Assembly (NCBI RefSeq): GCF_058153355.1
Contig: NZ_CM177019.1
Direction: 5' to 3' (one strand)
DNA length: 64,000 bases
Of the stretch, positions 63,064-64,000 are shown piece after piece (the stretch's first letter is position 1; every line of letters begins with the position of its first letter). Under the pieces are notes generated by a model that saw only the letters and a program-made list of their open reading frames with translations, searched no databases and was not told the DNA's origin. A program made the position numbers and the translations under genes.

Positions 63064-63098
63064 GCCAGATGCGGCGTCAACGCCTTCTCTGGTCTACG
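63064..63098. repeat. REP-like (repetitive extragenic palindrome) element
   Basis: gccagatgcggcgtcaacgccttctctggtctac resembles the canonical REP unit GCCGGATGCGGCGTGAACGCCTTATCCGGCCTAC. Confidence 0.55.
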
Positions 63099-63099
63099 A

Positions 63100-64000
63100 G
63101 TGCGACAAGAAGTCGTCCAACATATTGTTTTGATAAATTATTTATATAAAACCAACTATTCCATTAGTTGTAGCCTACTGAGGCAGGCAAAGCTGGTAAC
63201 GGCTCTGTCTGAAGCCCTTGGGACAATGTAGCTTAGCAAATATTGCTTCAGTTAATCGTGAGAAAACCTGATCGCTACAAGCATCATGCGGCGAGAGCGC
63301 TAGGCTGGGCGGTATGGTTAACATAGTGAACTGTCGTTAAACGTCGTAACAGAGAACGAGCCAAAGATGCTGATAGGCTTGCACCAAAAGGTAAGGGGTA
63401 AGGCTATTCCTGTTCGTAGTGGGAATACATGGACAATAACTCCCCCGGCGGATAGACAGAACCTAACCCGTTCTTTGTATGTTGGTCGGAACTTGGTAAG
63501 CCCGAATTCTCGCCCTAGTGGCAGGGGCACCGTAAGGCAAACTGATGAGAATGCGGGTAAAGGAGGATGGAAAAAGCGAAAGCCGGACTGTAATCGTGCG
63601 GATAGAGGTTCAATATTTGCCTTAACGGGAAACCGTGCTGACTTCCATCTGGTCTTTAATTGCGAAACATCTGCGAAGGTTTCTTTGGATGACATGTATG
63701 AAAATTACATCTAACAATGTAACTGCGGTCATCAACGGAAAAGGTTGGCATTCCATTAACTGGAAGAAATGCCATCAACACGTTAAAACCATACAGACAA
63801 GAATCGCAAAGGCGGCATGTAACCAGCAATGGCGTACAGTCGGTAGATTGCAACGATTGCTGGTTCGCTCATTCAGCGCCAGAGCACTGGCGGTGAAACG
63901 AGTTACGGAAAATAGCGGGCGTAAAACCCCCGGAGTTGATGGTCAAATCTGGAGTACTCCAGAATCAAAATGGGAAGCGATATTCAAACTCAGGCGAAAA
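63100..64000 (+). mobile_element. Group II intron, 5' portion (ribozyme domains I-IV plus start of the intron-encoded protein); continues beyond window end
   Basis: Begins with GTGCG (group II 5' consensus GUGYG), followed by ~600 nt of structured-looking sequence without a credible ORF, then an ORF whose N-terminus matches group II intron reverse transcriptase/maturase proteins. Confidence 0.7.
63699..64000 (+). CDS. Group II intron-encoded reverse transcriptase/maturase (N-terminal 100 codons; partial)
   Basis: Open frame from ATG 63699 to the window end: MKITSNNVTAVINGKGWHSINWKKCHQHVKTIQTRIAKAACNQQWRTVGRLQRLLVRSFSARALAVKRVTENSGRKTPGVDGQIWSTPESKW...; the motif ALAVKRVTEN-G--TPGVDG is characteristic of the RT-0 region. 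Absent from the track because no stop codon lies in the window. Confidence 0.75.

Follow-up and report, generated by a model that had tools for sequence, protein, structure and literature searches.

A mobile group II intron at the tail of a REP element downstream of potD

The potD-downstream locus and the intron junction

The last 901 nt of a 64,000-nt stretch of DNA (NCBI RefSeq assembly GCF_058153355.1, contig NZ_CM177019.1), hereafter the window, are the 5′ part of a mobile group II intron. The intron lies downstream of potD, past a terminator-like hairpin and directly behind a repetitive extragenic palindromic (REP) element, whose 3′ tail probably served as a mimic of the target that this intron family uses in plasmid-borne hok genes. 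The features of the locus are as follows.

61913–62959, plus strand: potD, last gene of potABCD, given for context only (from the list of open reading frames (ORFs), the Pfam families of the same protein in locus L015 and the K-12 annotation of the orthologous region)
62966–62999, plus strand: potD intrinsic-terminator-like hairpin and T-run (from a scan; 12-bp stem at 62966–62993, then TTTCATTT)
63064–63097, plus strand: REP (palindromic unit) GCCAGATGCGGCGTCAACGCCTTCTCTGGTCTAC (from identity to the K-12 ybaL-gsk REP and the hairpin fold)
63100–64000, plus strand: group II intron, first 901 nt, with domains I–III and the start of domain IV (GTGCG 5′ end; 99.4% identity to CP057208, 96.5% to CP010124)
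63152–63299, plus strand: domain I core (Rfam RF02012)
63277, plus strand: private G-to-A substitution at intron nt 178 (from a position-by-position comparison with 10 other copies)
63698–64000, plus strand: start of the intron-encoded protein, an LtrA-type reverse transcriptase (RT)/maturase/endonuclease (En), first 101 codons (Pfam RVT_N)

The 5′ boundary, GTGCG at 63100–63104, fits the GUGYG consensus at the exon junction. A covariance-model scan gave a full-length match to RF02012 (group-II-D1D4-7) on the plus strand at 63152–63299, with 112.5 bits (E = 4.6e-24; the gathering score is 34 bits). The ATG of the ORF at 63698 is preceded by 598 nt of intron (63100–63697); its 101 visible codons match Pfam RVT_N (RT-0; E = 1.4e-33), and their translation is identical to the N terminus of the complete 554-residue LtrA of CP057208. 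These results bear out a preliminary description of the same DNA, which had read a group II intron from GTGCG at 63100, about 600 nt of non-coding sequence and then an ORF with an RT/maturase N terminus, and had placed the 3′ part of the intron outside the window: 901 nt are visible versus 2359 nt in copies that are 99.4% identical. At that full length the intron would end ~1458 nt past the window. The minimum free energy fold of 63100–63697 (z = −1.67) pairs the loops of the exon-binding sites (EBSs) elsewhere; it is uninformative on tertiary-contact loops and was not used.

The chromosomal flank was compared with 5426 complete E. coli genomes. The match to chromosomes with an empty site runs through 63099, and that to plasmid copies of the intron begins at 63100, so that the window carries no plasmid exon sequence at its 5′ junction; raw plasmid alignments start at ~63095 because the last bases of both 5′ exons are alike. 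The junction lies exactly at 63099|63100, as established by the comparison with an intron-free potD-downstream region that the preliminary description had suggested.

That description had also put the intron ~100 bp past the potD terminator and directly after a REP-like palindrome, and both placements are correct. The potD stop codon is at 62959, the hairpin and T-run occupy 62966–62999, and 2 nt separate the end of the REP from the start of the intron. REPs are extragenic imperfect palindromes of ~35 nt that carry a GTAG/CTAC tag. Positions 63064–63099 are identical to the K-12 ybaL-gsk REP at 33 of 36 positions, and the hairpin at 63064–63093 has a folding energy of −14.3 kcal/mol; the match to Rfam naRNA4 (REP325-derived) is weak (25 bits, E = 0.18, under threshold). 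The identity of the REP rests on sequence, because the K-12 record annotates no REP features in the intergenic regions concerned. At the empty site, for example in CP098223 (...CTTCTCTGGTCTACGA|CACCCGCAAATTC...), an inverted second REP and cobB follow, which makes the window REP the first half of a pair resembling a bacterial interspersed mosaic element (BIME). From this empty allele a complete copy is expected to continue from the intron end into CACCCGCAAATTCAATTC, the inverted REP and cobB. The insertion, in an E. coli chromosome, has sense orientation; it follows the potD terminator and the REP and interrupts no gene, and the intron would be expressed here only by read-through.

The PotD allele of the window is rare, with 14 contigs carrying it. 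In two loci with this potD allele (L015 and L016) the flank is identical to that of the window and the site is empty; in a third (L017, a Logan assembly) the site is filled, and the contig breaks 19 nt into the intron. Since filled and empty alleles both occur within one potD-allele lineage, the insertion is recent and polymorphic. The potD-site insertion is present in none of the complete RefSeq E. coli chromosomes among the 5426 genomes searched, and a look-up of CobB (330 blocks) returned only empty or K-12-like arrangements.

In the lineage of the window, potD is followed by the BIME-like REP pair and then directly by cobB; the ymfA–ycfZ segment that intervenes in K-12 is absent (comparison with L015 7047–7261 and L052). 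Matches extend through this REP arrangement in only ~16 of the 3229 query-matching genomes (5426 searched).

Complementarity between the intron and the REP tail

Two segments of domain I are complementary to the DNA immediately upstream of the junction. The elements of this putative pairing, with the intron-binding sites (IBSs) numbered backwards from the junction, are listed here.

63085–63091, plus strand: IBS2, TTCTCTG, target −15 to −9, in the 3′ arm of the REP stem (7/7 complementary to EBS2 CAGAGAA)
63094–63099, plus strand: IBS1, CTACGA, target −6 to −1 (6/6 complementary to EBS1 UCGUAG)
63350–63356, plus strand: EBS2, CAGAGAA, intron nt 251–257 (from covariation with the target and a gapless alignment, in the same register, to the EBS2 region of the intron EcI5)
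63405–63427, plus strand: EBS1 hairpin with a 6-bp stem, 63405–63410/63422–63427 (read from the sequence; EBS1 UCGUAG in the loop, 63414–63419)

All 13 positions of the REP tail TTCTCTG-GT-CTACGA that face EBS2 and EBS1 are complementary to them (13/13). No second 13/13 site exists on either strand of the 64-kb window, where the next best reaches 11/13 and ~0.002 such sites are expected by chance (128 kb / 4^13). The REP contributes 13 of the 15 target bases, and IBS1 includes the conserved CTAC (GTAG) tag. The stem of the EBS1 hairpin carries a compensatory A-T to G-C change in L024. Across intron variants, EBSs and targets change together as follows.

EBS1/IBS1: UCGUAG / CTACGA
EBS1/IBS1 (variant B): UCGUAA / TTACGA
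EBS2/IBS2: CAGAGAA / (T/A)(T/A)CTCTG
EBS2/IBS2: CAUGAAA / TTTCATG
EBS2/IBS2: CAUAAAA / TTTTATG

Covariation is seen with EBS2 at −11, −12 and −13 and with EBS1 at −6. The target rules applied for comparison are those of EcI5 (PMC8643678). Base-pairing mimicry of the plasmid hok site would explain the REP adjacency, with no new targeting mode needed.

Complete relatives, home site and recurrent insertion

Close complete copies, whose first 700 nt are 99.3–99.6% identical to those of the window copy, all have a length of 2359 nt, every chromosomal one included, and end in ...GCTGCTACCCGAC. Every other recovered copy whose 3′ end lies in the fetched DNA is likewise full length (2357–2363 nt). Relatives that are 99.4% identical over the visible 901 nt carry a match to the domain V/VI model RF00029 (65.5 bits) and the 3′ end ...CCCGAC. 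Their 554-residue protein contains RVT_N, RVT_1, GIIM and HNH domains; the HNH domain (E = 8e-10 in a complete relative) corresponds to a region of the window copy that lies outside the window. Its best solved-structure match is the T.el4h RT (6ME0; E = 2e-187, residues 15–551), compared with E = 3e-39 for Lactococcus lactis LtrA and E = 4e-37 for the class C GsI-IIC RT, and it shares 54% identity with the protein that EcI5 encodes on pO157. These data point to an En-containing intron of class IIB1/chloroplast-like class 1 (CL1), not class C; the RT groups with CL1 RTs by structure-match scores and EcI5 identity. The classification of the RT, which the preliminary description had left to be made, is thus obtained through the relatives' protein. 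PGAP, the NCBI annotation pipeline, already annotates relatives as group II introns of this kind, and the element itself would be a standard mobile IIB1/CL1-type intron. No record was found of the 559-residue variant protein of CP010124.

EcI5 (E. coli pO157; IIB1 ribozyme, CL1 RT, used as a targetron) is the nearest described comparison. The 54% protein identity extends over RT, maturase, D and HNH En; both introns start with GUGCGACA, and both are plasmid-borne in E. coli. The EBS2 regions align without gaps (GUCGUUAACCAGAACAAGCC versus GUCGUAACAGAGAACGAGCC), with IBS2 in the same register from −13 to −9. Unlike the intron studied here, EcI5 has its home outside hok, at ...CCAAACTGGTGCTCGAAT| close to sopB of pO157, and the similarity of the two at the DNA level is below megablast detection. 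The Thermosynechococcus IIB1/CL1 intron T.el4h, or Th.e.I3 (cryo-EM structures 6ME0 and 6MEC), gave the best match among solved structures in a purely sequence-based comparison, and its mechanism of DNA invasion is presumably shared; it differs in its origin from a cyanobacterial thermophile and in its targets.

The home of the intron family is the 3′ end of plasmid hok genes. F-type plasmids that carry the intron come from E. coli, E. albertii, Salmonella, Enterobacter and Citrobacter, and in them it interrupts the last codons of a hok-family toxin gene (...TGGCYTACGA|A), with sok RNA just upstream. A metagenome scan recovered five loci, four in hok and a fifth (L022) with no assigned gene context. 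We found no literature report of a group II intron homing in hok. The exact 28-nt 5′ end of the intron has no match in 100,044 species-representative genomes; this 28-mer is unchanged in two of four relatives of 85% identity and differs by one base in the other two, and given that conservation the null result indicates that the intron is rare.

Variant B introns (EBS2 CAUGAAA; L003, L004 and L018) also occur in the hok alleles CAACAATGG or CAAGCATGG. There only 3–4 IBS2 bases pair, −14 and −15 are A, and a U248–A−14 EBS2a pairing like that of EcI5 would be possible. The family apparently accepts two different modes of reading −14 and −15. One of these loci, L004 5403–7761 (an ENA metagenome scaffold covering an F-plasmid leading region), holds a recombinant intron. 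Over nt 1–400 it agrees fully with variant B (EBS2 CAUGAAA, EBS1 UCGUAA), and nt 401–600 contain one difference; over nt 601–2200 it agrees fully with variant A (EBS2 CAGAGAA, EBS1 UCGUAG), and the last 159 nt contain one difference. The domain I targeting module has been swapped between variants, and the protein is 100% variant A.

The same intron is found in the same register in two further chromosomal REPs, between ybaL and gsk (GCCAGATGCGGCGTGAACGCCTTATCTGGCCTACGA|ACCGAC) and between fhuF/yjjZ and rsmC (...GCGTCTTATCTGGCCTACGA|AGGGCT), each with a 12/13 match. At ybaL-gsk, the flanks of three assemblies differ by 2.7–3% and the introns by 0–2 of 2359 nt; at fhuF-rsmC, flank divergence is 1.2–1.3%, against 2 nt between the introns. 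The introns are thus much younger than the backgrounds they sit in, so that no fewer than three insertions at the first site and two at the second took place independently, and the window insertion adds one. Within each of two strains, RHB33-C08 (CP057208/CP057207) and GCA_013924285, the plasmid copy in hok and the chromosomal copy in a REP are identical over 2359 nt, pointing to plasmid-to-chromosome movement inside a cell. A fourth chromosomal site lies downstream of yebE (L048 2903, GCA_015118455.1; ...GATAAACTGATCTACGA|). It matches IBS1 at 6/6 and IBS2 at 4/7 positions, keeps the CTG of IBS2 and is not a canonical REP tail; this insertion looks like relaxed ectopic retrotransposition.

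In a 54.8-kb draft contig (L041, GCA_042204225.1), an intron at 2912–5270 has the plasmid hok gene as its 5′ exon and chromosomal ybaL-gsk sequence as its 3′ exon. Either the contig is misassembled across the 2.36-kb repeat, or plasmid and chromosome have really recombined between intron copies, which would represent a route to plasmid integration.

Suitable targets are widespread and few per genome. In K-12 MG1655 the ybaL-gsk site is empty and matches at 12/13 positions, and the 36-mer of that REP is present in 5423 of the 5426 genomes, at a median of two places per genome. The ~400 kb of fetched loci contain no matching sites beyond the known ones, and none of the insertions recovered is in a REP with the commoner CCGG tail. 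With so few matching sites per genome, large-scale spread over REPs is unlikely.

The preliminary description had further proposed that two intergenic ORFs, 63367–63714 on the plus strand and 63318–63695 on the minus strand, are better explained as intron RNA, and we concur. Both fall within domains I–IV. In a copy of 99.3% identity a single substitution breaks the minus-strand ORF with a stop, and in copies of 85% identity both ORFs are full of stops or frameshifts. The region 63318–63714 is best treated as probable non-coding intron RNA, and in annotation neither ORF should be called a gene.

Mechanism and alternative explanations

We assign a probability of about 0.85 to the reading in which a retromobile IIB1/CL1 intron of the hok family landed in the potD-downstream REP tail by target mimicry. 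The observations behind it are the identity of the intron, its exact junction, the complementarity and covariation of EBSs and targets, the repeated REP register, the identical plasmid and chromosomal copies and the filled and empty alleles. The invading particle would be a ribonucleoprotein of excised lariat and protein, most likely from an F-type plasmid copy, that recognises the 3′ tail of the REP downstream of potD as a mimic of the hok site. By homology with EcI5 and T.el4h (PMC8643678), the target would be unwound and paired with EBS2, EBS1 and EBS3, with CAGAGAA of EBS2 on TTCTCTG (−15 to −9) and UCGUAG of EBS1 on CTACGA (−6 to −1). The intron RNA would then reverse-splice into the top strand between 63099 and 63100, the HNH domain would nick the bottom strand, and the RT would copy the intron by target-primed reverse transcription. 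These biochemical steps we infer from EcI5 and T.el4h; the origin of the window copy from a plasmid and its full length are likewise probable.

Several points weigh against this reading. The +1 base of the empty window allele is C, and every other site with a visible 3′ exon has A, so that an EBS3–IBS3 mismatch is possible at the window site. At −14 and −15 the window REP has T, opposite the invariant A256 and A257, and pairing of the EBS2 helix at these positions, although plausible, rests on invariant A-T pairs, not on covariation. In EcI5, −14 is read by EBS2a and must be A (PMC8643678), whereas the REP sites, like most sites of the hok-intron family, have T at −14/−15. Furthermore, the last ~1.46 kb of the window copy lie outside the window, where truncation or decay is possible, and the private substitution G178A replaces a G-C pair in a domain I hairpin by A·C, a change that the Rfam alignment marks as non-canonical in the window copy only and that could be a first sign of decay.

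The unseen 3′ part, the disrupted domain I pair and the +1 C, which may impair exon recognition, would also suit a dead remnant, a copy that is 3′-truncated or otherwise inactivated, and fragmented introns are common in Enterobacteriales (PMC3522654). We nevertheless regard a remnant as improbable. The window copy differs from the closest complete copies at only 3 (L008 type) to 5 (L001 type) of 901 nt, with all 101 codons identical; the insertion is recent, with filled and empty alleles in one potD-allele lineage; all other copies with a 3′ end in the fetched DNA are full length; and the break of the short-read contig L017 19 nt into the intron is what a long multicopy repeat would be expected to produce.

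The preliminary description had linked the REP adjacency to the known preference of some bacterial introns for terminator or REP-type stem-loops, and the evidence does not support this part of it. On such a structure-directed account, resembling class C (IIC) introns, the REP or terminator hairpin itself would be recognised and the sequence match would be secondary. Like class C introns, the window copy is intergenic, just past a hairpin and downstream of a terminator, ~100 nt beyond that of potD, and the three REP insertions all lie 6 nt past a stable hairpin (−14 to −21 kcal/mol). The account is nonetheless very improbable. Class C proteins lack an En domain, whereas the protein here is CL1-like and, in relatives, carries HNH; IIC introns also lack EBS2, which is present in the hok intron and covaries with the target. 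The hok sites have no consistent hairpin, with folds of −4.7 to −13.5 kcal/mol and differing shapes; the yebE site is not a canonical REP tail, yet keeps CTG..CTACGA; and REPs with a CCGG tail have never been seen occupied. The target thus appears to be read by ~13 bp of pairing with the REP tail and not by shape.

A retron or other non-intron RT, or arrival of the intron with flanking plasmid DNA by recombination, has a negligible probability. The protein does match some PDB entries that bear the label "retron-type RT", and the draft contig L041 joins plasmid and chromosomal exons across the intron. A retron, the possibility raised by the preliminary description as one that would overturn it, is excluded by the group II ribozyme model match upstream of the ORF and by the GIIM, HNH and domain V/VI features of the relatives. 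Recombination is refuted at the 5′ junction, where the chromosomal flank extends up to 63099 and the intron starts at 63100 with no plasmid exon between them.

Landing by target mimicry can be set beside other elements that use REPs. The REP-targeting insertion sequences (ISs) IS1397, ISKpn1, IS621 and ISPpu9/10 are DNA transposons in which a transposase, or a bridge RNA in the case of the IS110 family, reads the REP, as opposed to a ribozyme that would base-pair with the REP tail. They share with the hok intron a REP landing site and a fixed position and orientation (PMC1525189), but the hok intron uses only a rare REP subtype ending in ATCTGGCCTACGA or CTCTGGTCTACGA. In Pseudomonas putida KT2440, two of nine group II intron copies lie near REPs, which falls short of the association criterion of that study (PMC1525189). 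This count is the only association between group II introns and REPs that we found in the literature; we found no description of group II introns using E. coli REPs, and the searchable literature does not describe group II introns that land repeatedly in chromosomal REP tails.

A further and doubtful possibility is that the variant A lineage has gained a second family of homing sites, namely the tails of one REP subtype that almost every E. coli retains. If so, REPs would act as safe-harbour landing pads for repeated chromosomal establishment of a plasmid intron, intron copies on plasmid and chromosome could give homology for plasmid integration, as hinted by the chimeric L041, and IBS1 would coincide with the GTAG tag that is read by the REP-associated transposase.

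Upstream of the insertion, potABCD is intact in the window. Several E. coli strains carry a phage-type integrase gene directly upstream of potC (L002 1–496; L029, L031, L032 and L034), and in those strains a prophage is apparently inserted in potB or potA.

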